DNA of 32,000 bases from an uncultured Chloroflexia bacterium (GCA_963704755.1 OY969938.1:2640001-2672000); one strand, 5' to 3'. Shown: positions 6,872-31,080, counted from the stretch's first letter. Notes: generated by a model from the sequence alone, not told the origin. Program-made: numbers and translations.

Positions 6872-6990
6872 TAGATAAAAAGTAACTTCTGCCATCCCCT
6901 ATCCCCGGCGAGCGGAACTTAACGCCTTCCCCCTCCGCGAAGCGTGGGGAAGGCTGGAATGAGGGTAGATGCTGATCGGCGGCTCGGCTG
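6872..6990 (+). repeat. Family A interspersed hairpin repeat
   Basis: TAGATAAAAAGT...GCCATCCCCTATCCCCGGCGAGCGGAACTTAACG, then stem GCCTTCCCC/GGGGAAGGC (6924-6954), then CTGGAATGAGGGT...GCTGATCGGC. It is related to 5312-5400 (inverted) and to the tandem units at 27066-27295. Confidence 0.75.
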
Positions 6991-15900: not shown

Positions 15901-16331
15901 GGACAGGAAAGACCGGCAAACGCCGGGTTAGCTGAGGTAAATTATCGGTCATCAAGTCGATGGATCAACCGCCGTGACGGCGCATCCAGCGTGTGAATTG
16001 ATTCTACCACGGGTGAAAACCCGCTTCAACTTGAGCAGCAGGGGAAGAGATTAGAGATTTGTTAATAAAGCGGTTAGCGGGTAATAGTTGTAGGATGGGT
16101 GCAGGGCTTGTTTGTGACAAAAGCAATGCACAGAACGCCAGCCAGTTAATACATTGCCCGAAACCCATCGCTATCGAAAATAGCTTTTTAATCGTCATAT
16201 TGAGCATCGATTTTTGCCCTAAAGTATCTGGCAATAAAATTGCAAAATCCCTTTGTTGTGCCCCAAACTCACTTTGCGATAACCAAACCCCGCCCAGCTT
16301 ACCAATAGGTTAAAAATGCCAAAAAAACGTA

Positions 16332-17708
16332 TCACCTATCATTTTTCTTATAACAGGTCTTTTCTTTATGGCTTAGCCGACCATATTGTCGTATCTTCGC
16401 CGCTTGATCCAATGTATAGTAATAGGATCCACAACAATAGGGAGGAACAATATTTAATACCTTTGACCAGTCATTTACTGTCGAAGTTTTGACACCTAGT
16501 TCACTTGCCAAATTTGAACTACTAATGATCTCACCATGTTGTTTTATCTGACGGAACTCTTTTAATTCGCCTTGCCTTTTAACCCATTGCGGATTACTTC
16601 TTTTTAATTCAAGTTGTTGTTGATGATATTCCCTTTGTTGTTTCCGAATTGCTAATAATTCCTCTGCTTTTAGTTTGATCAAAGACTTTTCCAATAATGA
16701 AATATTCTTCTTTTGAAGGGCTAAACCCGATTGAAACTCATAACACATTCTTTCAGTGACCAAATTCTTGGGAAAAATTGATAATCTAGCAAGCCCCTCT
16801 GTTATTTCACCCCACCTAACGGCAGCTTCAATGTCTTTAATTTGTATTTTATTAAACGCATTTCCGTGAAGAAATAAATCACGAGTTAATTCAACATCAT
16901 TACGACAATAATCGGTAACTTCTTTGACTTTCCCTTCTTTAAAAAATTGCGGTGCTTGAAGTGCACTCCCTGATTTGCACTTTCCTAAAGTAGCTCTGGC
17001 CAAGTTATCCAAAGTAACTCGAAAGCCAGGTATATTCATCATTCCTTTTTCCCAAATTGAGACGTCCCACAGCTCAAATTTTCTGTTCCCTCTTATACTT
17101 TGCCACAAAGCTCGAAGGTCGGCGGGTGTATGTGAAAAACCACGACATCTCAATTCATTCTCAATCCACTGAAGAAACAAACCCCACCTTGCATGCGCCA
17201 ACAAATCGACTGTTTTATAGCCAAGCAATTCGCGAACTCCTGGAACATATCGTTCCAGAACGCAATAGTCAAAATTGATTAAGTTAGCACCTACAATAAA
17301 AGGATATCGAGAAAGTTCTTGAACCAATGCTTCCACTCTCGACTCTGACCAAAACCGAAAAGAGTGCTGTTCATCCCAGGTAACTGCAACAGCTAAACAT
17401 AATCTGCGAGTCATCATCGAACGCCAATTGTCAAATAATGGGGAAATGCCATCTAACTCGTTTAGGCAAAAATCATAATACAGTTCTGAATCACTTATAT
17501 CATGGCCATGAGAACAATATTTCTTTATGGTATCGACGGATTTAAATTGTGCATTACCATAAAACGTCCACCAAACTGGGACCTTCGGTATCCCATTCTT
17601 TTCGATCGTGGCCCATTCAGTAGCCGACAATTTTTCAAGGCTTTTAACAGATTCTTTGGCGTCTTTAAACAATCGCTGTGTTTCAAGATCAAATACTATT
17701 CCGTTCAT
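16332..17708 (-). CDS. DEDDy-type (RNase H-fold, YprB/PolB-exo-like) 3'-5' exonuclease domain + coiled coil + C-terminal excisionase/MerR-like HTH
   Basis: Exo I VFDLET (D7, E9), Exo II NLINFDYCVL, Exo III YCRNDVELTRDLF (Yx3D). A K/E/Q-rich coiled-coil-like stretch follows (KLKAEELLAIRKQQREYHQQQLELKR). The HTH candidate is ISSSNLASELGVKTSTVNDWSKVL...YYYTLDQAAKIRQY. The gene is strikingly AT-rich relative to its flanks. Confidence 0.7.
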   Translation of the reverse strand: MNGIVFDLETQRLFKDAKESVKSLEKLSATEWATIEKNGIPKVPVWWTFYGNAQFKSVDTIKKYCSHGHDISDSELYYDFCLNELDGISPLFDNWRSMMTRRLCLAVAVTWDEQHSFRFWSESRVEALVQELSRYPFIVGANLINFDYCVLERYVPGVRELLGYKTVDLLAHARWGLFLQWIENELRCRGFSHTPADLRALWQSIRGNRKFELWDVSIWEKGMMNIPGFRVTLDNLARATLGKCKSGSALQAPQFFKEGKVKEVTDYCRNDVELTRDLFLHGNAFNKIQIKDIEAAVRWGEITEGLARLSIFPKNLVTERMCYEFQSGLALQKKNISLLEKSLIKLKAEELLAIRKQQREYHQQQLELKRSNPQWVKRQGELKEFRQIKQHGEIISSSNLASELGVKTSTVNDWSKVLNIVPPYCCGSYYYTLDQAAKIRQYGRLSHKEKTCYKKNDR

Positions 17709-17936
17709 AAACCTGGGCCATTTTCCGTGAAGAATTCTAGTGTATGCATAGAGTAGTTGAGGGTGTAAATGGCATTTCAGTGATATATAAAACTACTTGT
17801 CTTCTACTTTCTACTCGTACCCCCTTTTTGGGTCATTGGCGGGTTACGGGCAACGAATCAAACGGTAAACAACCTTATTCTTAGCCAATATTCCTAAAGA
17901 GCCCTGCACCCACTCTACGCAGAGGTCATGCCCGGA

Positions 17937-17998
17937 CACTGAATCACGGAATCACCGAATCACTAAATCACCGACCCTGACATCCGACACTTAATCAC
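17937..17998. repeat. Family B repeat: four tandem octamers NRAATCAC followed by a CCCTGACATCCGACAC motif
   Basis: tgaatcac ggaatcac cgaatcac taaatcac (17940-17971). The same motifs (CTGAATCACCGAATCAC, CCTGACACC) occur at 25085-25118. Confidence 0.75.
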
Positions 17999-18004
17999 AT
18001 TCTT

Positions 18005-19138: not shown

Positions 19139-19223
19139 GCCGGAGTGGCGGAATTGGCAGACGCGCACGACTCAAAATCGTGTACCTTCGGGTATGAGGG
19201 TTCGATTCCCTCCTTCGGCACCA
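19139..19223 (+). tRNA. tRNA-Leu (anticodon CAA), type II with long variable arm, CCA encoded
   Basis: Hand-folded. Acceptor GCCGGAG/CTTCGGC, D stem GCG/CGC, anticodon stem CACGA/TCGTG with loop CTCAAAA, variable arm TACC-TTCG-GGTA, T arm GAGGG-TTCGATT-CCCTC, 3' ACCA. Confidence 0.93.
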
Positions 19224-19728: not shown

Positions 19729-19752
19729 CCAGGTTCCCAAAAGGGAACCTGG
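19729..19752. terminator. Perfect 10-bp hairpin downstream of the phage-like operon
   Basis: ccaggttccc-aaaa-gggaacctgg, ~125 nt past the stop of the 512-aa gene. Confidence 0.5.
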
Positions 19753-19875
19753 GCAGGTGCCAGAAAAAACTGCCGGTGGAGGGGGATACCCTATCACCCA
19801 GTTTAACCTATTTCGCAGGCATGCAGGGATAGATGCATAAGGGGCATCAGCGCATGCGGGAGCAGGCGGCTAATA

Positions 19876-21414
19876 CTACGCCGCCGATCCCTCCAACCCC
19901 GCCTGCAAACCACCCTCGGGCGTCCACTCCAGCCGCTCGAGCACAACGGCCTCATCCAGCCAGCCGGGGGTGACCTGGGCCCGCCGGCCGGCCGGCGCCT
20001 CCGCCAACCCCAACGGGCGTCCACACAGGCTGCGGAGCTTGCCGTCCGCCGCGATCAGGCACTCGACCGGGGTGCCCTTTGCCAGGACGTAGATTTCCAG
20101 TTCGCGCTGCGGGCTGACCCGCGCCAGCAGGCGCCGGCCATCCGTGCTGCCGGCTTGCAGCAGGTCCAGCAGCTCGTCCCGGCAGGTACGCAGGCTGTCC
20201 TTCCATAACAGGGTATAGCCGCTGACCGGCGTCTTCCAATGCACGCCGTTGAGGAACTGTCCGCCCAGGCCCGGGCCGGCCAGCTCTTCGATCCGCCCGG
20301 CCAGGGGTTCGACCCCCACCAGGTAGAAGTTTATATCAGCCAGCCCGCCGGCCAAGCTGACCCACTGCGAGCCGTTCCAGCTTTTCAGTTGCCCGCCCGG
20401 GTAAGCGTCGCTGTCTTCACGGAAGACCTGGTAGTAATTATCGTTATCTGCCCCGCCGCTGCGGCTCAGTTTGAGCCAGTATTGCTGCCCGGGCTGGATG
20501 CTCACCGGCTGGTCGAAGGCAAAGTGGACGTACCAGCGCCCGCCCTTGATCGCCTCGGCCGGCAGGCTGGCCTGCGCCAGCACGCCGCCCGGCGAGCCGC
20601 CGGCATCGCTGCACAACGCCAGGGCCAGTTCGTCCGCGCAGGCGTTGACCACTTTCAAGTCCAGGGCCACCTCGCTCAGCAGCCAGGGTCCATATCCGGT
20701 CTGGAAGCTCTGCGCCAGCACGGCGTCCAGGTTGGCCGTGCGGCCCAGGCTTTGCGCGTTTTGGGCCGGTTCGACGAAGCCCTCGTAATCCAGGTGAATC
20801 TCGGGATAAACCCAGGCCAGGGTGGAGAACCAGCCGCTGCACAGCAGCCGTACCTGGGCGGTCTGGGCGGGCAGCAGGCCGGTCCAGGGCCGGGTAGCCA
20901 TGGCCGGCAGCGGCGCTGCGGCCGCCTGCAAGCGGGCATCTCGCGCCGACAGGGCCTCGGCTTCCAGCAGCGAGCCCATTTGCAGGATGCTTTCTTTACG
21001 GCCGAAGCTGCGCCGGCTGTGGCCGTCCTCGGCCCAGGGGGTCAGGCAGGTCTCGCCGGCCCAATCGACGGCCGGCCGGCGGCGGTGATAGAGCACCGCC
21101 GTGCGGTTGGCCAGCTCATCCAGGTCGTAGGCGCAGGTCAGCCCGCCGTAGGCAATTTCGATCCGGCGCACGAAACCCCACCAGCAGGCCTGCCCGTCCC
21201 CGGTTGAAATCAGCACCGGTTTTCTGAGCATGTCCGGCGCCCACTGCGGAAAATTCAGCCCTTTCATTAAAAGGGAGATCTCGCCTTGCAGTTCGGCCTG
21301 TTCCGGCCCGCCCATGGCGGCCCAGCTCATATGCTTTACCTGCAAGTCGAACTCCGGCAGGATGGCCGGGCTGTCTTCACGGTGGAAGAATTGGATAGTC
21401 AAGGGCTCGTTCAT
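19876..21414 (-). CDS. Phage-like structural protein of unknown function (tail/receptor-binding candidate)
   Basis: 512-aa ORF with high coding-like GC3. Its start overlaps the upstream gene's stop by 4 nt (21411-21414). No motif recognised; it is the last gene of the module. Confidence 0.6.
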   Translation of the reverse strand: MNEPLTIQFFHREDSPAILPEFDLQVKHMSWAAMGGPEQAELQGEISLLMKGLNFPQWAPDMLRKPVLISTGDGQACWWGFVRRIEIAYGGLTCAYDLDELANRTAVLYHRRRPAVDWAGETCLTPWAEDGHSRRSFGRKESILQMGSLLEAEALSARDARLQAAAAPLPAMATRPWTGLLPAQTAQVRLLCSGWFSTLAWVYPEIHLDYEGFVEPAQNAQSLGRTANLDAVLAQSFQTGYGPWLLSEVALDLKVVNACADELALALCSDAGGSPGGVLAQASLPAEAIKGGRWYVHFAFDQPVSIQPGQQYWLKLSRSGGADNDNYYQVFREDSDAYPGGQLKSWNGSQWVSLAGGLADINFYLVGVEPLAGRIEELAGPGLGGQFLNGVHWKTPVSGYTLLWKDSLRTCRDELLDLLQAGSTDGRRLLARVSPQRELEIYVLAKGTPVECLIAADGKLRSLCGRPLGLAEAPAGRRAQVTPGWLDEAVVLERLEWTPEGGLQAGLEGSAA

Positions 21415-22751
21415 GGAGTTGCATACCTGGCGCCGTAAGCGATGCGCACCCTCAGGCTGTCGTTGACCGGCATACCCGCGTCCGTTTCGAAAAGGAAATA
21501 GACCCGGTTAGGCCGCCCGGGGTGCAGATACAGCGGCTGGCCCACCAGGGTATGGCTGGTGGACCGGCTTTCGCCGTCTGCGTCGCAGCTATAGACCTGC
21601 CCGTGCGGGCCATCCAGGACCAGTTGCTGAGCCTGGGAACAGCCGCTGATCGCCCGCAGCATGGCCCACTGTTCGGTGGGCAGGAGCTGCATGAAGTCCA
21701 GGCTCAGCCGGCGGCCGGCCGGGTCGGGACTTTCGCCCCACAGTTCTAGCGTCAGCGGCCCGTAACTGCCGGCGCTCGACGGCACCGGCGGCAGGTTGAG
21801 CGCCGGCCCGACTGCCATTGAGCTGCCCGCCTCGACCCGCGTCTGGGCGGTCTGTTCCAGCACCGCGCTGTTTTCGCACAGCTTCCAGCGCAGAAAGGTC
21901 GTAGTCGCCGGCGCGTTGTTCAGGCGCAGCACCGGCCGGAAAGCCCGGCCGGCGGCATAGCCCAGGCGGGCCGCATCCAGCTCCCAGGTCAGCAGTCGGG
22001 CTTCTTCGTCGCCCTGCCAATCCACCTGGCAGCAGGCGCCGTTGCTGCAATCGTCTGAGGGCAGGACCTGAACCTGCCCGGCAGCGCTGCCGGGGCTGGC
22101 CAGTTCGCCTTCCAGCACGTGCGCAAAGGCGCCCTGGCTGTCCCGCAGGTCCGTCCCGCCGGCCACGATCACATCCAACAACCGCCGCTGCGGGGCCGGA
22201 CCCAGGTCGAGCGTCAGGGTAGCCGGAGCCGGCAGTGAGCCGGGCAGGTCTTCGGGCAGGATATCGACATAATTCTGGTGACCGGCGGTCCCGTCGCAGT
22301 GGTTGAGCACGGCCAGGCCGTTCCAGACCCCCGCGCCGTTGGCATTGTGCAGCGGCAGCATATTGCCCGGCTCGTTCCAGTTATTCTCGCGCAGCAGGAA
22401 AAGGCGCAGCCCCTGGAACCCGTGCATGCGGTCGCTGGTGCCGTGCCCCAGCAGTTCGATCCGTCCGTCCAGCACCCGGCTGGTCAGCGGATCCTCCCGG
22501 CTGGCCGCCTGGATTTGCAGAAAAATCTCCTCGTCCCGGCCCCGGGCCAGGGCCAGCCACTTTTCCAGTTGGTACAGCCAGGCGCGGATGGTGCTGCCTT
22601 TGAGATCGATAAAGATCTCTTCCTCGACCAGGTTTGTCCCGGCCGGGCGTGGCCCGGCCTCGATGCGCGCCCCGCGCACCGGCTCCACCGGTTCCGGCCC
22701 GTGCAGCACAATCCCGGTTCCATCGATTTTTCGTAAAGATAGTTTGTACAT
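21411..22751 (-). CDS. Phage-like structural protein of unknown function (tail/baseplate candidate)
   Basis: 446-aa ORF translationally coupled to the 512-aa gene. No motif recognised. Confidence 0.6.
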   Translation of the reverse strand: MYKLSLRKIDGTGIVLHGPEPVEPVRGARIEAGPRPAGTNLVEEEIFIDLKGSTIRAWLYQLEKWLALARGRDEEIFLQIQAASREDPLTSRVLDGRIELLGHGTSDRMHGFQGLRLFLLRENNWNEPGNMLPLHNANGAGVWNGLAVLNHCDGTAGHQNYVDILPEDLPGSLPAPATLTLDLGPAPQRRLLDVIVAGGTDLRDSQGAFAHVLEGELASPGSAAGQVQVLPSDDCSNGACCQVDWQGDEEARLLTWELDAARLGYAAGRAFRPVLRLNNAPATTTFLRWKLCENSAVLEQTAQTRVEAGSSMAVGPALNLPPVPSSAGSYGPLTLELWGESPDPAGRRLSLDFMQLLPTEQWAMLRAISGCSQAQQLVLDGPHGQVYSCDADGESRSTSHTLVGQPLYLHPGRPNRVYFLFETDAGMPVNDSLRVRIAYGARYATP

Positions 22752-22771
22752 GGTTCCTCGGAAGAAGAGCG

Positions 22772-23100
22772 GTTAGCTCTTAGCTTTTAGCGGTTAGCTC
22801 TTAGCTCTTAGCTTTTAGCTGTTAGCGGTTAGCTCTTAGCTCTTAGCTTTTAGCTGTTAGCTATTGGCTTTTAGCTGTTGGCTCTTAGCTATTGGCTGTT
22901 GGCTGTTAGCTTTTAGCAGTTGGCTGATGGCTTTTAGCGATTAGCTATTGGCTGCAGGCGATTTACTCTCGGCTTTTTGTCCTTAGCTTTTACTGGCACC
23001 TTGGCCGATAGACTAAACGCTAATGGCTAACAGCTAACAGCTAACCGCTAGCCGCTAACAGCTAAGCGCTAAGCGCTAACCGCTACTCGCTAAAAGCTAT
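22772..23100. repeat. 47 in-phase heptamer units: about 26 clean NTTAGCT/NTTGGCT units, a degenerate centre, then about 13 units of the reverse complement (NNGCTAA)
   Basis: Parsed by hand. The left side reads gttagct cttagct tttagcg gttagct ... to 22953. Degenerate units run to ~23009. The right side reads agactaa acgctaa tggctaa cagctaa cagctaa ccgctag ccgctaa cagctaa gcgctaa gcgctaa ... to 23100. The 7-nt phase is never broken. Confidence 0.9.
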
Positions 23101-23533
23101 TCCACCCCGTCGGTTGCGGATCTTTTCCATCCGGGTAGGGTGGGTCGGCGGACTTTTGCAGCCCGGCCAGCCGGTAGCTTTGCAGGCTCGCCAGAGCCTT
23201 TTCGAAGCTGGCCAGTTGGGCCTGCCCGGCCTGCAGGGCTGCCTGCGCAGCGGCCTGGTCGAAGTGAAAGGCTGCGAGCTGTTCGGCCGAGCGGGTGATC
23301 AAGGCATAGCCCAACGCGCCGCGGATGATCAGGGCAAAGTGATGCCTGGAGAAATTGGTCGGGTTGCTTTCACCGTCCAGGCCTTCCAGCACCCACACCT
23401 GCCCGGAAGCATTCAGCAGGTCCTCGTAGGCCTGGCGGATGCCGGCGATCAGTTCCGCGTCGCTCCATACCAGTTCATTGGGATCGGCCAGCGCATCGCG
23501 CATACGTGCCACAATTTCGTCGGTGTCGCTCAT
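23090..23533 (-). CDS. Small phage-like protein (head-tail adaptor/connector candidate)
   Basis: The ATG at 23533 overlaps the lysozyme stop (ATGA overlap). The N-terminus MSDTDEIVARMRDALADPNELVWSDAELIAGIRQAYEDL resembles gp6-like connector N-termini. The assignment is tentative. Confidence 0.55.
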   Translation of the reverse strand: MSDTDEIVARMRDALADPNELVWSDAELIAGIRQAYEDLLNASGQVWVLEGLDGESNPTNFSRHHFALIIRGALGYALITRSAEQLAAFHFDQAAAQAALQAGQAQLASFEKALASLQSYRLAGLQKSADPPYPDGKDPQPTGWNSF

Positions 23534-24327
23534 GAGGTATGCAGCTCCGGGTGGGCCTGCCATAGCAGGCGTAGTATTTCTTCGTCGCTGATCTCAAGCG
23601 CCGGCTCGCCGGCCGGGACCCGCCCGCACCATTCTTCCAGGTCGGCGGGTGTGCCGTTGAACAGGTTCAGGTCAAGGGCCGTGCTGCAGCCCGGCAGGAC
23701 GAAACGGTCGCCGCTGAACTGCCAGAAAGCCCACTCCCGGCAGCCTTTAGGCAGCGGCGGTCCTTTTGGGGTGGGCAGCAGGTCGTTTTGCAGCTCCTCC
23801 CAGGTGGCCTGGATGCGCCCGGCCGGGTAGGGATATTGGGCCAGCCACAACGGCCAGCCGGCCAGCCAGTCCAGCATCGGGCGGGCGTAATCATTGACGA
23901 AGGACGTGCGGGTGTAGATCAGCACCGGTTTAGCGCAGGCCTGGCGCAGTCCCTGGGCTACTGCCAGGGCCGATGCGCTGATCTGCTCCGGCGAGGCCAG
24001 CCCGGCCACTTTGCCGCTCAGCCATTCGTTCCACGAGCTCCAGTACTGCTCCACGTCCACGGCGGCGAAGTCGAAGGCCTGGTTGGCGACTGCCTGGCAA
24101 AAGTTATCCACCTGGCGCTGGGCGTTCAGGGTCGGGTCGCACCAGTGATACACCCCGGTGATCATCCCGACTGACTGGGCCCCGCTCAAGTGCATCCCCA
24201 GGGCCGAATCGCGGCTGGCGCTGCCCTGGCTGGCTTTGGCGATTGCAAAACGGACACCGGCGGCGGCCAGCAAATCCCAATCGACCTGCGGCTGCCAGCG
24301 GCTGACGTCTATACCTAATGTGTGCAT
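23530..24327 (-). CDS. GH25-family muramidase (endolysin)
   Basis: GIDVSRWQPQVDWDLLAAAGVRFAIAKASQG and FAAVDVEQY motifs typical of GH25 lysozymes. A strong RBS AAAGGAGA lies upstream of the ATG at 24327. Confidence 0.85.
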   Translation of the reverse strand: MHTLGIDVSRWQPQVDWDLLAAAGVRFAIAKASQGSASRDSALGMHLSGAQSVGMITGVYHWCDPTLNAQRQVDNFCQAVANQAFDFAAVDVEQYWSSWNEWLSGKVAGLASPEQISASALAVAQGLRQACAKPVLIYTRTSFVNDYARPMLDWLAGWPLWLAQYPYPAGRIQATWEELQNDLLPTPKGPPLPKGCREWAFWQFSGDRFVLPGCSTALDLNLFNGTPADLEEWCGRVPAGEPALEISDEEILRLLWQAHPELHTS

Positions 24328-24401
24328 CCTGTCTCCTTTCGGTACTCCTCAGTGCATGGGTTAAGAATTTCCCGAACCTGATAATTTGCCTTGCCAGTGC
24401 T

Positions 24402-24574
24402 GAAAAATCCCCCCTGGCCCCCCTTTCCAAAGGGGGGAAAGAAAGAAACACAATGGACCCCCTTTTTAGATGAGGGCAATACAAGCCAGATGATTGGATC
24501 ATACACAGCCTCACGGGGGGCAAATGATCTATCTTTCCCCCCTTTTTCAAGGGGGGTAGGGGGGATTCTTTTTC
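24402..24574. repeat. Family C: inverted pair of ~45-nt elements, each with a poly-C/poly-G hairpin
   Basis: Unit A is gaaaaatcccccctggCCCCCCTTTccAAAGGGGGGaaagaaaga (24402-24446). The reverse complement of unit B (24529-24574) reads gaaaaagaatcccccctaCCCCCCTTgaaaAAGGGGGGaaagataga. Confidence 0.8.
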
Positions 24575-24640
24575 GCACGCGCCCCGGCAAGTTGTAAAGG
24601 TTCGTTCCATCAGATCGAGCCAATGGATATCAGCGCTTGT

Positions 24641-24844
24641 TCAAGCGCCCCGGCCGGCGTCTTCGATCGCCACGCCGGTCGAATAGACTGCCAGCGCGGC
24701 GATCGCGGCCTGGACGGCCTGCCAGACGGTCAATTCGCAACTGCTCAGCCCGGCCGCGATCGCGGCCAGCGCCACCAACAGCGCCCAGAACTTGCGGGAG
24801 CGCAAAATCATGCCAATTTGTTTCCAAAAATCGATGTTATCCAT
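24641..24844 (-). CDS. Holin-like small membrane protein (2 predicted TM)
   Basis: 67 aa from the ATG at 24844 (RBS AAAGAGGA); an alternative TTG lies 6 codons upstream at 24862. It has two hydrophobic helices and sits upstream of the endolysin. Confidence 0.55.
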   Translation of the reverse strand: MDNIDFWKQIGMILRSRKFWALLVALAAIAAGLSSCELTVWQAVQAAIAALAVYSTGVAIEDAGRGA

Positions 24845-24865
24845 GATGAAGTCCTCTTTCAATGA

Positions 24866-25131
24866 TGCAGTGGTTCGGTGTTCCTGTGTTGCGGTGGGGA
24901 GGTGTCAAATGTCGGGGGGGTGTTGCAGTGATTCGGTTTTACGGTGATTTAGTGGGGTGTCAGGTGTCGGGGAAGTGTTACATTGATTCGGTGTTACATT
25001 TTTGGGGTGGGTTAAGGGTCTCGACAGGTCACTCCAACATCCTGGCGCTTCAAAACTGAAGAACTGTCGCACCAAAACACCTCCCTGACACCTGAAACAC
25101 TGAATCACCGAATCACTGCAACACCTCCCCC
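24866..25131. repeat. Family B: nested direct and inverted repeats forming a long imperfect hairpin
   Basis: The left arm 24914-24977 (gggggggtgttgcagtgattcggttttacggtgatttagtggggtgtcaggtgtcggggaagtg) pairs with the right arm 25078-25131 (cacctccctgacacctgaaacactgaatcaccgaatcactgcaacacctccccc). Extra direct copies of gcagtgRttcggt and ggtgtcaNNtgtcgggg lie at 24866-24917. Confidence 0.8.
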
Positions 25132-25138
25132 GGATTAT

Positions 25139-27049
25139 CTACTCCGCCACGTTCGATTTATACAGCGGCCGGTAATCCGCCACGAAGATCGAGCACCAAT
25201 GGCGCACTTTCATGCGGATCTCGTCGTTGGTGAACAGCGCCCCCGAAGTTTCCTGGTCGGCGATGTAGATTTCGGGGGTCAGGCCAAAGCGTTCGGCCAG
25301 GATGATCCCCGGGGCCAGGCGCGGGTCCGCCACGGCGGCCCAATCGGTTGTGGCGTTGAACTCCGGGACGGTGATCACATCCCCCATCTCGCCGCGCTGC
25401 AGGTTCTCGGAAAAGATATTCGCCTCGCGCTCGAAGGAGGGATAAAGAATGCGCATCCCGGCCAGGCGCAGGCTGCGCGGCACCAGCATGTAGCGGGCGT
25501 CCAGGGCCAGCTTGGGTCCGCTGCCCGGGGCCAGCATGGGCTGATCGAAGATAGCCTGGCTGGCGGTTTCCCAGGTCTCGGCGCTCAGCGCGGCACTGCC
25601 CAGGTTATGGTGACTCGCGTCGTTGAACACGTTTTTGTTATCGGCCATTTGCGGGCCGGTGCCCGAATTGGCCGTGAAGATCCCGGCAACCTGGGCCGAG
25701 ATGCGTCGCAAGGCGGCCGAGGCCAGTTTGCGCGGGTACTGACGCAGCTTGTGGGTCTCGTCGCGCTCGAACATTTCCAGGGTCAGGCCGATGTAGCCGC
25801 CGTACTTGCCCCAGGTGCCCACTTCCTCCGAGTCGTTGATGGCCAGCTCCTCGTACGTGTCGCCTTCGTCGATGCCGGGCAAGGCGGTCACTTCGCCCAC
25901 GAGCACCCCGGTGATATCGTGCAGGTTGCTGAAATGCTCCACCGATACGATCAACTCCCACCAGCGGTAGCCGCTGCGGCCCAATTCTTGCCAGCCCATG
26001 ACCACCAGCTTGTTGAGCGTATCTTTGAGCAAGCCGGGCAGGCTGGCCCGCGAGGCGAACTGCACTCGTTCCGGGTAATAGCCGCCGTAGAATTCGTTAT
26101 CGCCGGTCAGCAGGGTATACATCTCGCGGATGCCGCTCAGGCGAGCCGCGTGCAGCCCCGCCAGTTTCTCCGGGCGGGCTGCGCCTAACAGATCGTAGGC
26201 CGCTGCTTCGAGCTGGTCCTCGCTGGAATACATCCCGTGAATGCGTGCCGGTCCTTGCACCACATTGCTCCCGGTCAAGTCGCTGACCAGGCTGCGCCCA
26301 TCCTCGATGGCCTGTTGCAGGCTCTCGGTTGTGAAGCTGGAATCTTTGAAGCGGCTGCGGATGCGCTCCCCGACGGCGGCCGGCAGGTGAGCGGCGGCCA
26401 GGCTGGTTTCCAGCAGCAGGTTGGAAAGCTGAGCTTGCACTTCGGCGGCGGGCGCCGCATCGACGATAGGAGTGGGGTTGCTTGAATTGGTTGGCATGGA
26501 AGAGTCTCCTTTGAAGGGTGGAATGGATTGGTTGTAAAGAGCACGCAAAAAGCTGCCGCCGCGGGCCGGTTCCAGCACCAGGTCCACGCTCAAAACACGC
26601 AGAATGCGCCGGACGTCCTGCCCGTTGGCTTCAAAGACCAGGTCGGCCGAAAAGCCCACGTCGGGTTTGGGGTTCTCGCCGGCCAGCATTTCGCGCCCCA
26701 AGGCGCTCAACAGCGGACCGGCCGGGCCAATTGGGCGCAGGTGCAGGCGGATCCCGTTGGACTGCGGGTCGAAAGCCGGGGAATGGCACACGCCGGCCAG
26801 GTCGCGCACGGAATGGCCTTCCCAGGCGTGATCGACGTAACACTCGCAGCCGTCCCACAACGCCAGCGACTCGGCCAGCACAGCCGCGGAGAACTGCCAG
26901 CCGTTGCCTTCACCGGCCGAAATGGCCAGGATCTCGAACTCGCCGGCGCCGGTGGGCTGTCCCGCGCAGTGGATGTGGGTGCTGTGCTGGTCGGGCTTAA
27001 CCAGGGTTTGGGTGGAAGAATCAGGTTCGATGAGGGTGTTTTGTTCCAT
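25139..27049 (-). CDS. Putative scaffold/prohead-protease-like domain fused to an HK97-fold-like major capsid protein
   Basis: 636-aa ORF immediately after the portal gene. It has an N-terminal ~190-aa domain (FEILAISAGEGNGWQFSAAVLAESLALWDG..VDH), a low-complexity linker (SSMPTNSSNPTPIVDAAPAAE) and a C-terminal ~400 aa of capsid-like size and position. The assignment rests on position and architecture, not on a verified motif. Confidence 0.6.
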   Translation of the reverse strand: MEQNTLIEPDSSTQTLVKPDQHSTHIHCAGQPTGAGEFEILAISAGEGNGWQFSAAVLAESLALWDGCECYVDHAWEGHSVRDLAGVCHSPAFDPQSNGIRLHLRPIGPAGPLLSALGREMLAGENPKPDVGFSADLVFEANGQDVRRILRVLSVDLVLEPARGGSFLRALYNQSIPPFKGDSSMPTNSSNPTPIVDAAPAAEVQAQLSNLLLETSLAAAHLPAAVGERIRSRFKDSSFTTESLQQAIEDGRSLVSDLTGSNVVQGPARIHGMYSSEDQLEAAAYDLLGAARPEKLAGLHAARLSGIREMYTLLTGDNEFYGGYYPERVQFASRASLPGLLKDTLNKLVVMGWQELGRSGYRWWELIVSVEHFSNLHDITGVLVGEVTALPGIDEGDTYEELAINDSEEVGTWGKYGGYIGLTLEMFERDETHKLRQYPRKLASAALRRISAQVAGIFTANSGTGPQMADNKNVFNDASHHNLGSAALSAETWETASQAIFDQPMLAPGSGPKLALDARYMLVPRSLRLAGMRILYPSFEREANIFSENLQRGEMGDVITVPEFNATTDWAAVADPRLAPGIILAERFGLTPEIYIADQETSGALFTNDEIRMKVRHWCSIFVADYRPLYKSNVAE

Positions 27050-27065
27050 AGAATGCCTTTCTGTA

Positions 27066-27295
27066 TTTTTTCTCCTTCCCCCTTAATGAGGAAAGGCCGG
27101 GATGGGGTTTGCGCTGATCGGCTCGAGCATTTGCCTGTCCGTAACGCCTCTTACGTTTCTTGCTCCTTCCCCCTCGCAGGGGGCAGGCCGGGATGAGGGT
27201 TTGCGCTAGTTGGCTCAAGCATTTGCCTGCTTGTAACGCTCCTCAAGTTTCTTTCTCCTTTTCCCTCGCAGGGGGCAGGCCGGGATGGGGTCTTC
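27066..27295. repeat. Family A: about 2.5 tandem copies of a ~90-nt unit between the portal and capsid genes
   Basis: Unit 2 (27155-27246) is tttcttgctccttCCCCCTcgcAGGGGGcaggccgggatgagggtttgcgctagttggctcaagcatttgcctgcttgtaacgctcctcaag. Unit 1 (27066-27154) is a diverged copy. Unit 3 (27247-27295) is partial and overlaps the portal stop codon. Confidence 0.85.
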
Positions 27296-28715
27296 ATTTC
27301 GGCTCCCCGGTCAGCAGATCCACCTTGCCGGGGGTTGGCTGGCTGTGACCCGCCCCGGTTGATCCGGTAGTGGCCGGCCCGGCTTGCCGGCCGCGCGCCA
27401 GCAGCTCGTCCACTTCGGCGACTTCGCCGAAGAAGCGGTAAGCCAGGCGCAGCATCTCCGCGTCATCGATCAGTCCGCGGTCGCGCAGTTGCGCCAGTAC
27501 CGCCATGATCTGGTTGCCGGCCATACCCAGGGCCACGTTGTCGCGCGCCGAAAGGTCGGCGCCATTGACCTCCACCTGCGCCTGCGGGTTAACCCGCCCG
27601 CGGCCGCTGCCGCGCTGCTCCACCAGGGCTTTCCGGTTGAGCGCCACCTGCAGCACGTCATGGATCAGCCACAGGAAATAGGCCTGGCGCTGCTCGAAGC
27701 GCCGGTAGGTCGGCCCGCCGGCTGCCTCGGCCGTGGTGCGGGTGGACGATTCGGGCTCGGCCAGAAAGTGCAGCGGCACACCGGCGCCGGCCGCGATCAT
27801 TTTCTTCAGCGCCAGGCCGTCGGTGTTGGCCTCGTCTGCTTCCAGGCGCGGGTTGATCACCTCCCAGGTCTCGTTTTCATCGGCTACCAGGATCGAGCCC
27901 GGCGTGGGCGGGTTGGCGTTCAGGCGCTGCTGGCGGGCCAGGCGGTCGGCCTCGCTGGTAAAGCGCGAGCGCACCAGGTACAGGAAGGCCGTGCGGAAGC
28001 GGTTCAGCCGGGCGCGGTCTTCCAGCCAGTTGGCATAGCGGCTTAGCCAGCGTAACAGCGGGCCCAGGTCCGATTCGCCCCACAAGCCTCCGGCCGGCCG
28101 GTTGATGGCGTAGTGCAGCATGACCGAGTTGAAGCTGCCGTCTTCCCGTGGGCAGTCCGTTTGGGGATCGTAGGCCGGCCACAGCCGCACCTCCCCCAGG
28201 TTATCCCCACCCGAGTACACGCTAAAACCGGTCTCCTGTTCCACGTCATTGGCCCGGCAGTGGATCTCCTGGACCTGACCGGCCGGCACCGCCCGCACAT
28301 AGCTCATCCCACCGGCGTCGCTGGAGACCAGCACGAACAGGTTGCCGGTGCGGGTCAGCTCGTCGCACCACTCGCCGGCACGCACGTCCATACGGTTGAG
28401 ACGGTGGTTCCAGAACTCGTCCAGGAAGTGCGCCGTGGCCGGGTGTTTGCAGCGCACGGCGATGCCTTCGCCGACCACGTACTGGCTGGTCAGTTCGACC
28501 AGCCGGCGGGCCAACGGGTTGACCCGCCAGGCCTCCAGGGCTTGCTCTTGCAGATTCTGGCGGTCGCCGCTCGGCCGGTCGAGGAGATTATCGCCGGAGG
28601 CCCGTGCGCCGATCAAAAAGGTGGCCTCGCTCTCGGCGCTGAAACAAGCGTGAACCTGCCGCCGGATCTCGTCGCGGAATAGGTAGGCCACCAGGCTGGA
28701 ATAAATTGGTTTCAT
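27294..28715 (-). CDS. Phage portal protein
   Basis: 473 aa from the ATG at 28715 (RBS GGGAGGG, 12 nt after the TerL stop). The 5' extension in the track (to 28901) overlaps terL and is not credible. Size and position (directly after TerL) support a portal. Confidence 0.7.
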   Translation of the reverse strand: MKPIYSSLVAYLFRDEIRRQVHACFSAESEATFLIGARASGDNLLDRPSGDRQNLQEQALEAWRVNPLARRLVELTSQYVVGEGIAVRCKHPATAHFLDEFWNHRLNRMDVRAGEWCDELTRTGNLFVLVSSDAGGMSYVRAVPAGQVQEIHCRANDVEQETGFSVYSGGDNLGEVRLWPAYDPQTDCPREDGSFNSVMLHYAINRPAGGLWGESDLGPLLRWLSRYANWLEDRARLNRFRTAFLYLVRSRFTSEADRLARQQRLNANPPTPGSILVADENETWEVINPRLEADEANTDGLALKKMIAAGAGVPLHFLAEPESSTRTTAEAAGGPTYRRFEQRQAYFLWLIHDVLQVALNRKALVEQRGSGRGRVNPQAQVEVNGADLSARDNVALGMAGNQIMAVLAQLRDRGLIDDAEMLRLAYRFFGEVAEVDELLARGRQAGPATTGSTGAGHSQPTPGKVDLLTGEPK

Positions 28716-28726
28716 AAACCCTCCCA

Positions 28727-30340
28727 TCAGAATCCCCGGTCCAGGTCTTTCAGTGGGTCGCGGGCGGGCACCACCAGCGTCTCGCCGCTGCTCGACCAGG
28801 GCTGCTGGTCCAGCAGCGAACACAGCGCCGCTGAAATGACCAGGTCGTCGTGCACCAGTTCCCCGTTTTGCGGGTCGCGGGTCCCATCCGGCACCCCCCA
28901 ACGCATGCGCTTATCCGTCCCCGGCAGGATCTGGTATTGGCAGAAGGAGAGTTGTTGCTTGAAGAGAGAATGGAGATTGGAGAATAGAGAATAGTTGGCT
29001 CTTTCGCGGCCTTCTGGCCTTTCTTTACTAATCTCTACTCTCTTTTCACTATTCTCTTCTTTTGGCTCTTTCCATCTCCCGCTATCGATCACCGCCAGGA
29101 AGTCCCAGCCCAGTTTGCTTTTGCTGGACGAGTTGAACAGGAACGGCAGCACCTTGCCGGGAAAGGCCCGCCCGAGGAAGCTGGCCAGCCCGGCTCCAAC
29201 ACCGGTGGCATCCACCACCAGGTAGCGCGCTCGCCAGGTCTCGGCCAGGCCGCGCAGGTCGTTGTACAGTTGGGTGTGGCGCACCCCCACCCACTGGCGG
29301 CGCAGCACGCAGCGGTAGGTAGGCGCCTGCACCAGCGGATCGGCCAGCGTGGCCAGGTCCACCTCGACGATCGTCAGCGCGGTCGCATCCCGGCCCGGGT
29401 TGTGCAGGTTCCAACTGCCCGGGTCCAGGTTGGATTCGGCGCTCTCGTCGATCCCGGCCACGTCCAGCAGCAGAGCGTAGATACGCCCGCTCGATGGCTG
29501 TTGCTGTACGGCATGGTTTCCCTGCATCCGTTCCAGGCGGTCCGGCGGGAACATGCCACCTTCGCTGTCGATCTCCTCGCTGAAGAACTGGGTACGCACC
29601 ATCGGGTTGAAGCGTCCCAGGCGGGCCACCTGCTCGGCCACGAATAGGCCATATTTGGGCACTTCCGCGGCCACCCGGTCGGCGTCGGCCTGGAAGACCC
29701 GCCGGCGTCCATCCCGTGCCTGAGCTTCGCGTGAGCCGCGCAGCTCGCGCGCCAGCAGCGTCCGGCTGGTCCAGGCCGTGCCCCAGAAAACGCGCGTGGC
29801 GTTGGTCGAGGCCGCCATAGGCGCGATTTCCTTGTCGTATTTGGCGATCTCCACGTCCTGGGCTTCGTCCACTTCCAACAGTGCGCTGGCGGTGGCCCCC
29901 ACGATGTTGGCCTCCTTCGAGCCGCTCAAGAAGAAAATCCGCGCCTGGCCGACCCGGTAGATGTAGCCGGATTCCTTCTCCCAATCGCCCTGCACCAGCG
30001 GGTTTTTGCGCAGCACTCGTTCCAGGCGGCGCATGGCGTTGATCGATTGCGGTTTCAGGGTGGGTGAAATTTTGATGATTTCGGCGTCCGTCTCGTGCAG
30101 GTAAGTCAGCAGGTAGGATTCGAGTTGGGCCTGCACTTCGTTCTTTCCGGATTGGCGCGGGAAGAGCACCACGAAGCTCAGCCCCTGCTTGAGGATGACC
30201 GATTCGGCGATCGCCCGGATCACTTCGGTCTGGTAACTGCGCAGTTTCAGGTGAGCACAGGCTGCCGTGAAGGCAACCGGGTCTCTCAATATGCTTGTCA
30301 CCGGGGGAACCAACGTTTCGTCAACCATAATCATCCTCAT
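28727..30340 (-). CDS. terL: Terminase large subunit
   Basis: Walker A FPRQSGKN and Walker B LLEVDEAQD. Nuclease-domain acidic motifs ALLLDVAG, YLVVDATGVG and HDDLVISAALC. 537 aa. Confidence 0.85.
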   Translation of the reverse strand: MRMIMVDETLVPPVTSILRDPVAFTAACAHLKLRSYQTEVIRAIAESVILKQGLSFVVLFPRQSGKNEVQAQLESYLLTYLHETDAEIIKISPTLKPQSINAMRRLERVLRKNPLVQGDWEKESGYIYRVGQARIFFLSGSKEANIVGATASALLEVDEAQDVEIAKYDKEIAPMAASTNATRVFWGTAWTSRTLLARELRGSREAQARDGRRRVFQADADRVAAEVPKYGLFVAEQVARLGRFNPMVRTQFFSEEIDSEGGMFPPDRLERMQGNHAVQQQPSSGRIYALLLDVAGIDESAESNLDPGSWNLHNPGRDATALTIVEVDLATLADPLVQAPTYRCVLRRQWVGVRHTQLYNDLRGLAETWRARYLVVDATGVGAGLASFLGRAFPGKVLPFLFNSSSKSKLGWDFLAVIDSGRWKEPKEENSEKRVEISKERPEGRERANYSLFSNLHSLFKQQLSFCQYQILPGTDKRMRWGVPDGTRDPQNGELVHDDLVISAALCSLLDQQPWSSSGETLVVPARDPLKDLDRGF

Positions 30341-30523
30341 TGGGTACGCTCTAATTGGCTCATGAGAGTTAGGGTCTGGCAGAGCCAGACACCAACACTC
30401 ATCTTGCTATTTCGGAATTCGGTCGGGCGGGTTGGCCAGGGGGCTGGCGCGGATCATGCTTTTCGCGACGCAGGCAAGTCAGGTTACCGTGACTCAACCC
30501 GCCCGTTGATATGGGCTGCCGGT

Positions 30524-30862
30524 TTATTCCAGCCCGGAGGTCAGGACCGTGTCGATCCCGTTCTCCTCCATTTCGGTACGGATTTCTTCCAGGGCCGCGC
30601 GGACATAGTCGCCTGCCGATTCGTCGTCCTCCAGGGAGTGTTCGGCTTTGAGCAAGGCGGCCAGGTTGGCGCAGGCCCGTGAAACCGTTTCGAGCACCGG
30701 CAGCAGCTCGTTGAGCGGTTTGCCGGCGTCGGCTTTAGCCTGGGTCATGTGAATGAGCTCTCGCACGATGCGGATCTCGTCCGAAAGTTTTTCGGCTTTG
30801 GGTTTGCGACCCCGTGGTTTGGCCAGGGCAGTGGGCGCCCCGGCTTCTTTTGGATCAGTCAT
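30524..30862 (-). CDS. Small basic/acidic protein upstream of terL (small terminase or regulator candidate)
   Basis: 112 aa from the ATG at 30862 (RBS AAGGAAGGGG). It has an N-terminal basic AT-hook-like KPRGRKPK and an acidic helical C-terminus. Position is the only support for a TerS call. Confidence 0.45.
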   Translation of the reverse strand: MTDPKEAGAPTALAKPRGRKPKAEKLSDEIRIVRELIHMTQAKADAGKPLNELLPVLETVSRACANLAALLKAEHSLEDDESAGDYVRAALEEIRTEMEENGIDTVLTSGLE

Positions 30863-30919
30863 AGCCCCTTCCTTTGCCTGGTGCCGGCCCGAAGGAAAAC
30901 GCAATTTCAAGCCGGTTCC

Positions 30920-30939
30920 TATAGAACGTATATTCTATA
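30920..30939. promoter_or_regulatory. Palindrome TATAGAA-N6-TTCTATA upstream of the phage-like operon (operator candidate)
   Basis: Perfect 7-bp arms in an AT-rich stretch ~60 nt upstream of the first module gene. Adjacent palindromes GCAT-T-ATGC and ATGCAT lie at ~30941-30953. Confidence 0.4.
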
Positions 30940-31027
30940 AGCATTATGCATTTATTCCGGGTGCAATTCAATATGTCAATCTGTGCAAAAAAAGCGCAGG
31001 GGGTGCAAAAGGATAGCTCTCAGAAAA

Positions 31028-31080
31028 CGAGTATTTAGTGCTTATGGCGAGCAACGCTCGCCATAAGCACTAAATACTCG
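31028..31080. terminator. Perfect 25-bp-stem hairpin separating the phage-like module from the DtxR-family gene
   Basis: cgagtatttagtgcttatggcgagc-aac-gctcgccataagcactaaatactcg; every position was paired by hand. Confidence 0.55.

Follow-up and report, generated by a model that had tools for sequence, protein, structure and literature searches.

Closest described systems

Gene transfer agents (GTAs) are known, to our knowledge, from only a handful of lineages, mostly alphaproteobacterial, with one podovirus-like case reported in 2026. Here we analyze a 32,000-nucleotide stretch of the genome of an uncultured Chloroflexia bacterium (GCA_963704755.1 OY969938.1:2640001-2672000), referred to below as the window, with positions counted from its first letter. 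It contains a module of nine intact, co-oriented open reading frames (ORFs) on the minus strand at 19876-30910, and a promoter region extends this module to about 30970. We consider it a strong candidate locus for GTA-like particles, and it would be the first for the phylum Chloroflexota; literature searches for GTAs in Chloroflexi or Anaerolinea gave nothing relevant. That the module is a long-resident, vertically inherited and selectively maintained operon of phage derivation seems to us very likely. We also favor, with less assurance, the more specific reading of a domesticated, host-controlled and damage-inducible operon of the Anaerolineaceae for GTA-like particles, closest in design to FpGTA.

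FpGTA of Faecalibacterium prausnitzii was presented by its authors as the first podovirus-like GTA-like element (Nat Commun 2026; PMC12946183). It comprises a 10.5-kb operon with a small terminase (TerS) without obvious DNA-binding domain, a large terminase (TerL), portal, scaffold, capsid and unknown proteins, together with a second operon of 5.5 kb encoding baseplate, fiber, receptor-binding, holin and endolysin proteins, and its particles of about 40 nm, apparently tailless, contain about 8.5 kb of host DNA (PMC12946183). The module resembles it in its compact size (about 10.5 kb), in its TerS candidate without obvious DNA-binding domain, its TerL, portal, capsid and unknown phage-like proteins, in proteins of short-tail or baseplate type, in a holin with an endolysin, in the lack of integrase and replication genes and apparently in being nearly ubiquitous within a lineage. 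However, FpGTA is divided between two operons about 125 kb apart whereas a single locus is found here, it has separate scaffold and capsid genes instead of one fusion protein, and it belongs to the Bacillota and not to the Chloroflexota; the likeness drawn here is one of design. FpGTA also has particle, proteomic and packaged-DNA evidence, whereas the Anaerolineae module is known from genes alone.

The RcGTA-type GTAs of Alphaproteobacteria are, like the module, phage-derived head-tail clusters without lysogeny or replication genes. Both descend vertically under purifying selection, and both have host regulation and tail-tip proteins of the Dit or hub type (the last two predicted in our case). 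RcGTA-like clusters carry protease and capsid as two distinct genes, and after them the tube, chaperones and tape measure of a long tail; this order was not found in the module, which has neither tube nor tape measure. Moreover, the lysis and accessory genes of RcGTA lie at other loci and the system is under CtrA/GafA control, whereas here lysis genes are part of the operon and the operator is of the LexA-box type. PBSX, a defective prophage of Bacillus to which the module can also be likened, is chromosomally fixed and SOS-inducible, packages host DNA below phage-genome size and is released by lysis. It nevertheless acts as a killer particle, spans about 28 kb, and has a contractile tail and an Xre repressor of its own, in contrast to a module of 10-11 kb without sheath, tube or repressor.

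Capsid-forming phage-inducible chromosomal islands (cf-PICIs) are likewise small, with their own terminase, portal, capsid and connector genes and no long tail. These satellites carry an integrase and regulatory and replication genes, and they move between hosts by means of helper-phage tails. The module differs from them in that we found no integrase, helper-responsive regulation, replication genes or horizontal spread, and its pattern of divergence is that of vertical inheritance.

Among 50,697 phage records the best matches reached 25-31% identity and concerned single genes only; full-length synteny with an ordinary complete temperate phage, which the earlier note on this DNA named as a refutation, was not seen. 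Both capsid and portal have distant relatives in Microcystis phage Mae-JY22. This phage is a Mu-like siphovirus of 41 kb that has a tape measure, and the other module genes had no match in it. Pseudomonas phage F10, the Stx2/933W group and Mae-JY22 share the type of capsid gene, with the capsid domain behind an N-terminal maturation domain, but at 25-28% identity and as complete phages of 30-60 kb with replication or transposition genes. Matches in IMG/VR were fragments of 4-9.5 kb; one 25-kb contig, on which no integrase was found, holds a rearranged variant of the module with AAA_15 and PIN_8 genes at its flanks.

Conservation of the module in Anaerolineae

A scan of one genome per species yielded 64 loci (designated L with a number) from 63 other Anaerolineae genomes, and the carriers include four cultured isolates, Bellilinea caldifistulae, Longilinea arvoryzae, Ornatilinea apprima and Thermanaerothrix solaris. 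There is a single copy per genome and the gene order is conserved across the 64 loci. Two copies in one metagenome-assembled genome (L052 and L057) were attributed to co-binned strains and not to paralogues, since they are 93% identical and have a context in common with L050. For the capsid protein the search gave more than 1200 homologues; the best 120, at 56-72% identity, are mostly labelled Bellilinea or Anaerolineaceae, and many of them lie on contigs of 0.1-1.7 Mb.

Two arrangements can be distinguished. In clade A, which includes the window, the order is m1-TerL-portal-capsid-holin-GH25-m7-m8-m9, and in clade B it is m1-TerL-GH25-portal-capsid-holin-c29-m7-c5-c4-c10-c8-c7. The clade-B proteins c5 and c4 have no profile-profile similarity to m8 and m9, and c4 has a C-terminus similar to the Ig-like domain of a pseudaminidase from Pseudomonas (3.5e-7); the head and packaging genes are stable, and it is the presumed host-contact genes that are exchanged between clades. 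The last two clade-B genes, c8 and c7 (e.g. 14922-16254 in L041), have no counterpart in the window and encode membrane proteins, one with a zinc-ribbon-like N-terminus and the other with SH3 domains (PF08239, 3.3e-11) and a transmembrane segment. Rearranged variants are L046, L053, L078 (the 25-kb IMG/VR contig), L020 and L044, in some of which the portal gene has moved downstream or m7-m9 are inverted, and in some of which the capsid gene is apart from TerL.

A small ORF that follows the holin gene in 36 related loci is missing from the window copy. In clade A it encodes about 60 aa and contains the motif RPDGSVVLL.NGMKFVV.PE, and in clade B (c29) it is about 140 aa long; it was observed in L001, L002, L003, L007, L026, L049, L056 and 28 clade-B loci.

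In many clade-B loci (L012, L020, L024, L030, L034, L039, L041, L043 and L047) a gene of about 190 aa resembling an IS200/Y1 transposase (weak PF01797) lies directly upstream of m1, mostly co-oriented with the module, although L020 has it on the opposite strand. This gene might be either a REP (repetitive extragenic palindromic)-associated transposase or a recruited component. In L017, L050, L057 and L063, which represent one subclade, a co-oriented gene for a family-B DNA polymerase (about 790 aa; PF00136, 1.1e-20) was found a few kb 3' of the module, and is probably a host gene.

Genomic neighborhood, inheritance and selection

In 21 loci the module is anchored on both sides by conserved non-module genes. 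It measures 9.5-11.0 kb in these loci and the median distance from host gene to host gene is 11.2 kb, a spacing into which no integrase or replication genes could fit; host genes are situated within tens to hundreds of nucleotides of both module ends, and no integrase, excisionase, primase or replication gene occurs between the anchors. The anchors are ordinary cellular genes: TadE and Tad-vWA pilus proteins, a PD40 protein, an M20 peptidase, Ham1 and RpoD, as well as an HD-domain response regulator, a class-V aminotransferase and a sortase. A PHROG scan of 129 flank ORFs gave no recurrent integrase, tail or replication family among the top 25 families listed, and no tRNA gene abuts the module in 60 related loci.

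The window agrees with this picture in its gene content. The host genes that the earlier note saw on both flanks are indeed there, namely YchF (TIGR00092, 5e-91), tRNA-Leu(CAA) at 19139-19223, a DUF1232 protein and an MntR/DtxR regulator, and within the 32 kb we likewise found no integrase, repressor, replication, tail-tube or tape-measure gene. Integration at an attachment (att) site in tRNA-Leu was considered and rejected, since the tRNA-Leu region and the right border have no att-like repeat in common beyond what chance would give. The module is thus a chromosomal cluster of structural and packaging genes without integration, lysogeny-control or replication genes, the gene content by which GTAs and other viriforms are recognized, and the integrase with att site, repressor and replication genes of an integrated temperate prophage are absent from the window and from between the anchors in the 21 loci.

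The same cannot be said of the position. The earlier note raised the possibility that the module is fixed at the ychF-tRNA-Leu/dtxR locus, which we had to abandon: none of the 64 related loci has this site. Since the window flank genes are absent near every other module copy, and since relatives of dtxR on three metagenome contigs (66-68% identity) have no module adjoining them, the site is specific to the window lineage. Elsewhere the neighborhoods follow the capsid tree and form a chain, TadE/Tad-vWA, module, PD40-Ham1-YceD-RpoD or M20. The combination of TadE/Tad-vWA upstream and PD40 downstream occurs in both deep and shallow branches of the tree, one locus has PD40-Ham1-YceD-RpoD downstream and so links to the Ham1-YceD-RpoD context of another subclade, and the M20 peptidase recurs on either side of the module. 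Such contexts fit, and likely reflect, one ancient locus reshaped by local rearrangement.

Divergence of the module parallels that of the host. Protein identity of the core module is correlated with that of the flanks (Spearman 0.78 in 76 locus pairs that share flank genes, although the pairs are not independent), and in ten closer pairs the synonymous divergence (dS) of the module is about that of adjacent host genes; for example, between L049 and L056 it is 0.25-0.56 in the module and 0.21-0.56 in host genes. Most module genes have a dN/dS ratio (omega) of 0.03-0.25, and the values of m8 and m9 reach 0.4; omega is well below 1 in every gene. The comparisons of synteny and of dN/dS proposed in the earlier note support its central idea well, with a collinear module, host-gene flanks, clade-structured contexts and purifying selection. 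Vertical inheritance under purifying selection, as expected of GTAs and viriforms, is indicated by the dS and omega values, the identity correlation and the clade-structured contexts alike.

Control region

In almost every locus the palindrome TAGAAC-N4-GTTCTA (family consensus TATAGAACAATTGTTCTATA) occurs just 5' of m1, where it is positioned just 3' of a sigma-70-like -10 element and before the ribosome-binding site. In the window this operator reads TAGAATATACGTTCTA (30922-30937), is of the GAAC-N4-GTTC (LexA/Cheo-box) type, and lies 5 nt after the -10 of a candidate sigma-70-like promoter upstream of m1 (TTGAAT-17 nt-CATAAT, 30943-30971, minus strand; a consensus match only). Related loci have an equivalent -35/-10 arrangement upstream of the operator. 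With a position weight matrix built from the operator sites, a site of at least 14 bits was present within 750 nt 5' of TerL in 46 of the 48 loci with 5' sequence, against a shuffled-sequence background of 2.6 hits per 1.15 Mb, and in two further loci the operator lies slightly farther from TerL. When the capsid gene is split from TerL, as in L020, L044 and L053, it is the capsid gene that the operator directly precedes.

A GAAC-N4-GTTC motif overlapping or just 3' of a promoter is the mark of a LexA regulon, and this is what we observed at 30922-30937, in a locus without a repressor gene. The LexA of Dehalococcoides, which also belongs to the Chloroflexota, was reportedly found in 2002 to bind a GAAC-N4-GTTC box. 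In B. subtilis and clostridia the LexA boxes are GAACN4GTTC or GAACnnnnnTTC (PMC4234289), and phage GIL01, which has no repressor of its own, is under direct LexA control (PMC4551915). From this resemblance it seems reasonably probable that the operator is bound by the host LexA. Other perfect GAAC-N4-GTTC sites in the loci turned out to be GC-rich chance matches inside genes and were set aside as independent evidence for LexA, and the few other high-scoring operator-like sites within the loci are not beside recognizable SOS genes.

Second, clade-specific palindromes are found about 60-110 nt upstream of the operator, around or upstream of the -35 element (about 30975-31030 in the window). They have the form CTTGCCAAATTGGCAAG in clade B (e.g. 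L041, L034, L018 and L047) and consist of TGCAC/CTGCAC..GTGCAG repeats in clade A (L008 and L010), which hints at a second regulator. A perfect 20-bp stem (ATTTAGTGCTTATGGCGAGC...GCTCGCCATAAGCACTAAAT, 31033-31077) also lies in the gap that separates the module promoter from the divergent promoter of mntR/dtxR.

Packaging, capsid and lysis proteins

Calling of ORFs in the window upheld the nine intact, co-oriented genes of the earlier note. Family searches gave a clear identity for four of the nine (TerL, portal, capsid fusion and GH25) and no clear family for m1, the holin-like ORF, m7, m8 and m9.

The first gene, m1 (30524-30862), encodes a helical protein of about 112 aa with a basic N-terminus, in which we found no helix-turn-helix and no Pfam family. 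It is kept 5' of TerL in at least 20 loci, and this position makes it a candidate for the small terminase. TerL (28727-30340) matches Terminase_6C (6.9e-6) and TerL PHROGs, its Walker A/B and nuclease motifs are conserved, and it has kept 97 of 97 family-invariant residues; in the portal protein (27294-28715; phrog_10963, 4.6e-28) the figure is 82 of 82. The capsid gene (25139-27049) encodes a fusion protein of 636 aa in which an HK97-type major capsid domain (PF25209, 6.4e-26) occupies the C-terminal residues from about 331 to 636, with all 93 family-invariant residues present. The NCBIfam family of fusions between prohead protease and major capsid protein (MCP) and the protease-MCP families of PHROGs match this C-terminal part only, and the first 330 residues have no Pfam family even at E<=1. 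The N-terminal domain is conserved and may have a protease or scaffold role. Profiles of the capsid fusion, m8, m9 and c5 found no match in the PDB by sequence.

The lysis genes follow the capsid gene. An ORF of 73 aa (24641-24862) with two hydrophobic segments had no family match and would be holin-like, to judge from its position and hydrophobicity; the protein is conserved at 49-81% identity in 46 loci. Its neighbor (23530-24327) is a GH25 muramidase (PF01183, 2.6e-29, with endolysin PHROGs), the presumed endolysin, with 25 of 25 invariant residues.

The nine genes had been described as tightly or translationally coupled. This holds for three of the eight junctions: both ATGA overlaps (21411-21414 and 23530-23533) were confirmed, and so was the tight TerL-portal junction, where a gap of 11 nt contains a GGGAGGG ribosome-binding site. 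The other five junctions are repeat-filled spacers of 183-338 nt. A terminator-like hairpin (19748-19764, minus strand; a consensus match only) follows 3' of m9. The possibility that the nine proteins constitute an anti-phage defense system was dropped, as PADLOC models gave zero matches among them.

Tail-type proteins

The earlier note counted three proteins without assignment and listed beside them only packaging, portal, capsid and lysis functions. This has to be revised, as m7, m8 and m9 look like an adaptor, a Dit-like tail tip and a receptor-binding tail protein; the module would not be tailless and is more complete than was claimed. Four weak but concordant signals make m7 (23090-23533) a candidate head-to-tail adaptor: a match to phrog_399 'structural protein' (0.0044), a profile match to PDB 7wmp 'adaptor protein gp12' (E=0.016), a match of its clade-B homologue to the SU10_adaptor family of Pfam (E=0.038), and its conservation across 38 loci.

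For m8 (21411-22751) a confident AlphaFold2 model was obtained (pLDDT 88.1), and Foldseek related it to the tail tip of Bxb1 (1.5e-7), the baseplate of Douge (7.7e-6, target TM 0.41) and the Dit of SPP1 (1.3e-3, target TM 0.42), and also to carbohydrate-binding modules; we annotate it as a distal-tail (Dit-like) protein with domains of carbohydrate-binding type, and all 25 of its invariant residues are kept. The model of m9 (19876-21414; pLDDT 86.5) matched phi812 baseplate chains (2e-7) and tail-tip proteins of Bxb1, Mu (gp44) and T5 in the PDB, and virion-associated, minor-tail, tail-fiber and J-like proteins in BFVD. This protein, annotated as of tail-tip or receptor-binding type, has a choice-of-anchor R domain at residues 224-340 (1.4e-12) and retains 33 of 36 invariant residues. 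Because the fold matches are partial (TM <=0.3 on the query), the assignments of m8 and m9 are of kind and not of orthology. Searches with Pfam, PHROGs and NCBIfam and by fold brought up neither a tube gene nor one for a tape measure. An adaptor and a tail tip mounted without tube or tape measure suggest, as far as the models go, a stubby tail.

Base composition

The statement that the module has the same GC content as the chromosome proved wrong. In the window it has 63.3% GC and its flanks 55.8%, a difference of 7.5 points, and among 40 loci with at least 5 kb of flank the module was higher in all 40, by a mean of 8.4 points. Its GC tracks that of the host (r=0.85) over a host range of 41-64%. 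By codon position the excess over the flanks is 6.4 points at GC1, 6.4 at GC2 and 8.3 at GC3. In alphaproteobacterial GTAs, GC is raised through GC1 and GC2, which has been attributed to cheaper amino acids, and GC3 is not raised (PMC7360931). The parallel with RcGTA is accordingly partial: GC1 and GC2 are raised in both, and the GC3 excess is found only here and is not accounted for by the published GTA model.

Interpretation and alternative explanations

Taken together, the domesticated GTA-like module of the earlier note gains the support of collinear conservation, host genes adjoining both ends, co-divergence with the host, purifying selection, the absence of close relatives among cultured phages and the operator, and loses the arguments drawn from GC content, a fixed site and the lack of a tail. 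In the mechanism that we propose, transcription would start from one sigma-70-type promoter 5' of m1, gated by the GAAC-N4-GTTC palindrome with LexA as its most likely ligand. DNA damage in a subpopulation of cells would then lead to particle assembly, headful packaging of cellular DNA and lysis. The predicted parts are a TerS candidate, TerL, portal, capsid fusion, adaptor, two tail-tip or receptor-binding proteins and a holin with the GH25 endolysin; with these the operon would supply a small, DNA-filled, stubby-tailed particle and its release, and it should not be able to replicate or integrate alone. Stubby-tailed particles that contain DNA, are released by lysis and are under host control (probably through the SOS response) are what the genes make reasonably probable. 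Whether such particles would transfer host DNA as a true GTA or serve as killer or lysis devices is less settled, and we put transfer at somewhat under an even chance. We hold equally tentatively the evolutionary version of this reading, in which an SOS-gated, single-operon GTA of about 10 kb, ancestral to the Anaerolineaceae, arose by independent domestication of a phage with a protease-capsid fusion and with loss of tube and tape measure.

Several observations weigh against a domesticated GTA. The insertion site in the window is unique among the 64 loci and is beside a tRNA gene, and the GC3 excess of about 8 points, unlike RcGTA, could be a foreign compositional signature. Repeats have been inserted at four junctions of the window copy, which has also lost one small conserved ORF. 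The particle, its packaging and transfer are deduced from genes, and LexA from the likeness of a motif; the assignments of TerS, protease and adaptor come from position or from weak matches. Finally, the whole 10-kb module together with flanks would fit into a T=7 head, which would blur the distinction between a GTA and a self-transmitting element. Indeed, a head capacity smaller than the particle-coding DNA, by which GTAs are defined, may not apply if the head is T=4 or larger, given a module of about 10 kb.

The alternative that survives best, though we think it rather unlikely, is a domesticated particle that does not transfer DNA, either a PBSX-like killer or bacteriocin, or a device by which these filamentous bacteria, which form biofilms, would undergo SOS-triggered altruistic lysis and release extracellular DNA, with packaged DNA being incidental and not delivered. 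The evidence of conservation, selection and operator applies to it equally, and the lysis genes are among the most conserved parts, as the identities of the holin illustrate. The exchange of distal tail genes between clades (m8/m9 against c5/c4) is also what would be expected if they determined the specificity of a killer particle. PBSX, although it packages 13 kb of host DNA, acts as a tailocin, and the authors of FpGTA keep this option for their own system (PMC12946183). On the other hand, terminase, portal and a full capsid are under strong purifying selection, and an omega of about 0.1 on these genes would be hard to explain if DNA packaging were irrelevant. Nor does the module have a contractile or long tail with which to puncture cells.

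A still-mobile element is a somewhat poorer explanation. It could be a minimal temperate phage or a cf-PICI-like satellite that uses host recombinases or homologous recombination of flanks packaged with it, perhaps with replication or tails taken from a helper phage. The window site, which is common to none of the 64 loci nor to the three dtxR-bearing metagenome contigs, would be understandable in such an element, as would a module GC of 5-15 points over the flanks at all three codon positions, the fragments catalogued in IMG/VR and the rearranged variants L046, L053 and L078. However, the 21 anchored loci are devoid of integrase, excisionase, primase and replication genes, no att-like repeat was found in the window, no tRNA gene abuts the module in the 60 loci, and IMG/VR holds fragments of no more than 9.5 kb apart from the rearranged contig. 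The equality of module and flank dS, the clade-structured contexts and the single copy per genome also speak against mobility. An ordinary defective prophage remnant decaying in place, to which the missing lysogeny, replication and long-tail genes, the repeats at four junctions and the lost small ORF might be ascribed, is very improbable and largely refuted by nine intact ORFs, by the retention of every invariant residue in capsid, portal, TerL, GH25 and m8, by the low omega of every gene and by the occurrence of the same 10-kb set with a conserved operator across genera.

Anaerolineae, which grow slowly and lack genetic tools, abound in anaerobic digesters, sediments and activated sludge. If the domesticated GTA-like operon is real, it would represent an independent domestication event in a new phylum, and Anaerolineae communities would have in it a candidate pathway for gene flow or for programmed lysis. 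The Chloroflexota would thereby have their first GTA, which among the self-contained ones known would also be the most compact, its functions for head, stubby tail and lysis being placed behind one LexA-type operator. The operon would also be a minimal system of about ten genes in which to see how a phage becomes an organelle of its host. It would be interesting to examine the cultured isolates, at least four of which carry the operon, since the predicted inducer is DNA damage, which is simple to apply.

Repeats and other features of the window

The earlier note also argued for long residence from repeat families shared between the module and the chromosome. We could verify this only in part. 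A family of 8-mer repeats (GAATCACN) is common to the spacer upstream of ychF (17931-17990) and the capsid-holin spacer (25084-25130); the other claimed sharing was weak or absent at E<1e-3, and the repeats are specific to the window genome. The capsid-holin spacer (24866-25130) contains, besides the 8-mers, a 55-nt unit repeated 2.3 times at 24866-24997.

The spacer between m7 and m8 (22752-23089) is filled by an imperfect inverted repeat of about 330 nt, made of about 27 copies of the heptamer TTAGCNN (22768-22954) followed by about 12 of the reverse complement CTAACNG (23013-23093). As the same junction is short in related loci, this array is an insertion specific to the window genome. Elements resembling REPs or miniature inverted-repeat transposable elements are built around C5-6...G5-6 hairpins in other module spacers (27094-27291, 24418-24437 and 24537-24556), and a weakly similar copy is found in a chromosomal spacer near 6922 (6922-6949). 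In the genome-specific spacer between portal and capsid (27050-27293) such G/C hairpins form part of a 92-nt tandem repeat of 2.2 copies (27094-27291). Between holin and GH25 (24328-24640), REP-like CCCCCC...GGGGGG hairpins occupy the place of the small conserved ORF of the relatives. The TerL gene itself harbors an in-frame heptamer repeat, GAATAGA in 4.9 copies (28961-28994); the resulting insertion of 22 aa falls in a loop of variable length across the family and leaves the catalytic motifs untouched.

Outside the module, the region 16000-18000 is a low-GC island, with 38-42% GC compared to 55-62% around it. An ORF of 458 aa in this island (16332-17708) has no Pfam, NCBIfam or PADLOC match and is probably a separate foreign insertion.

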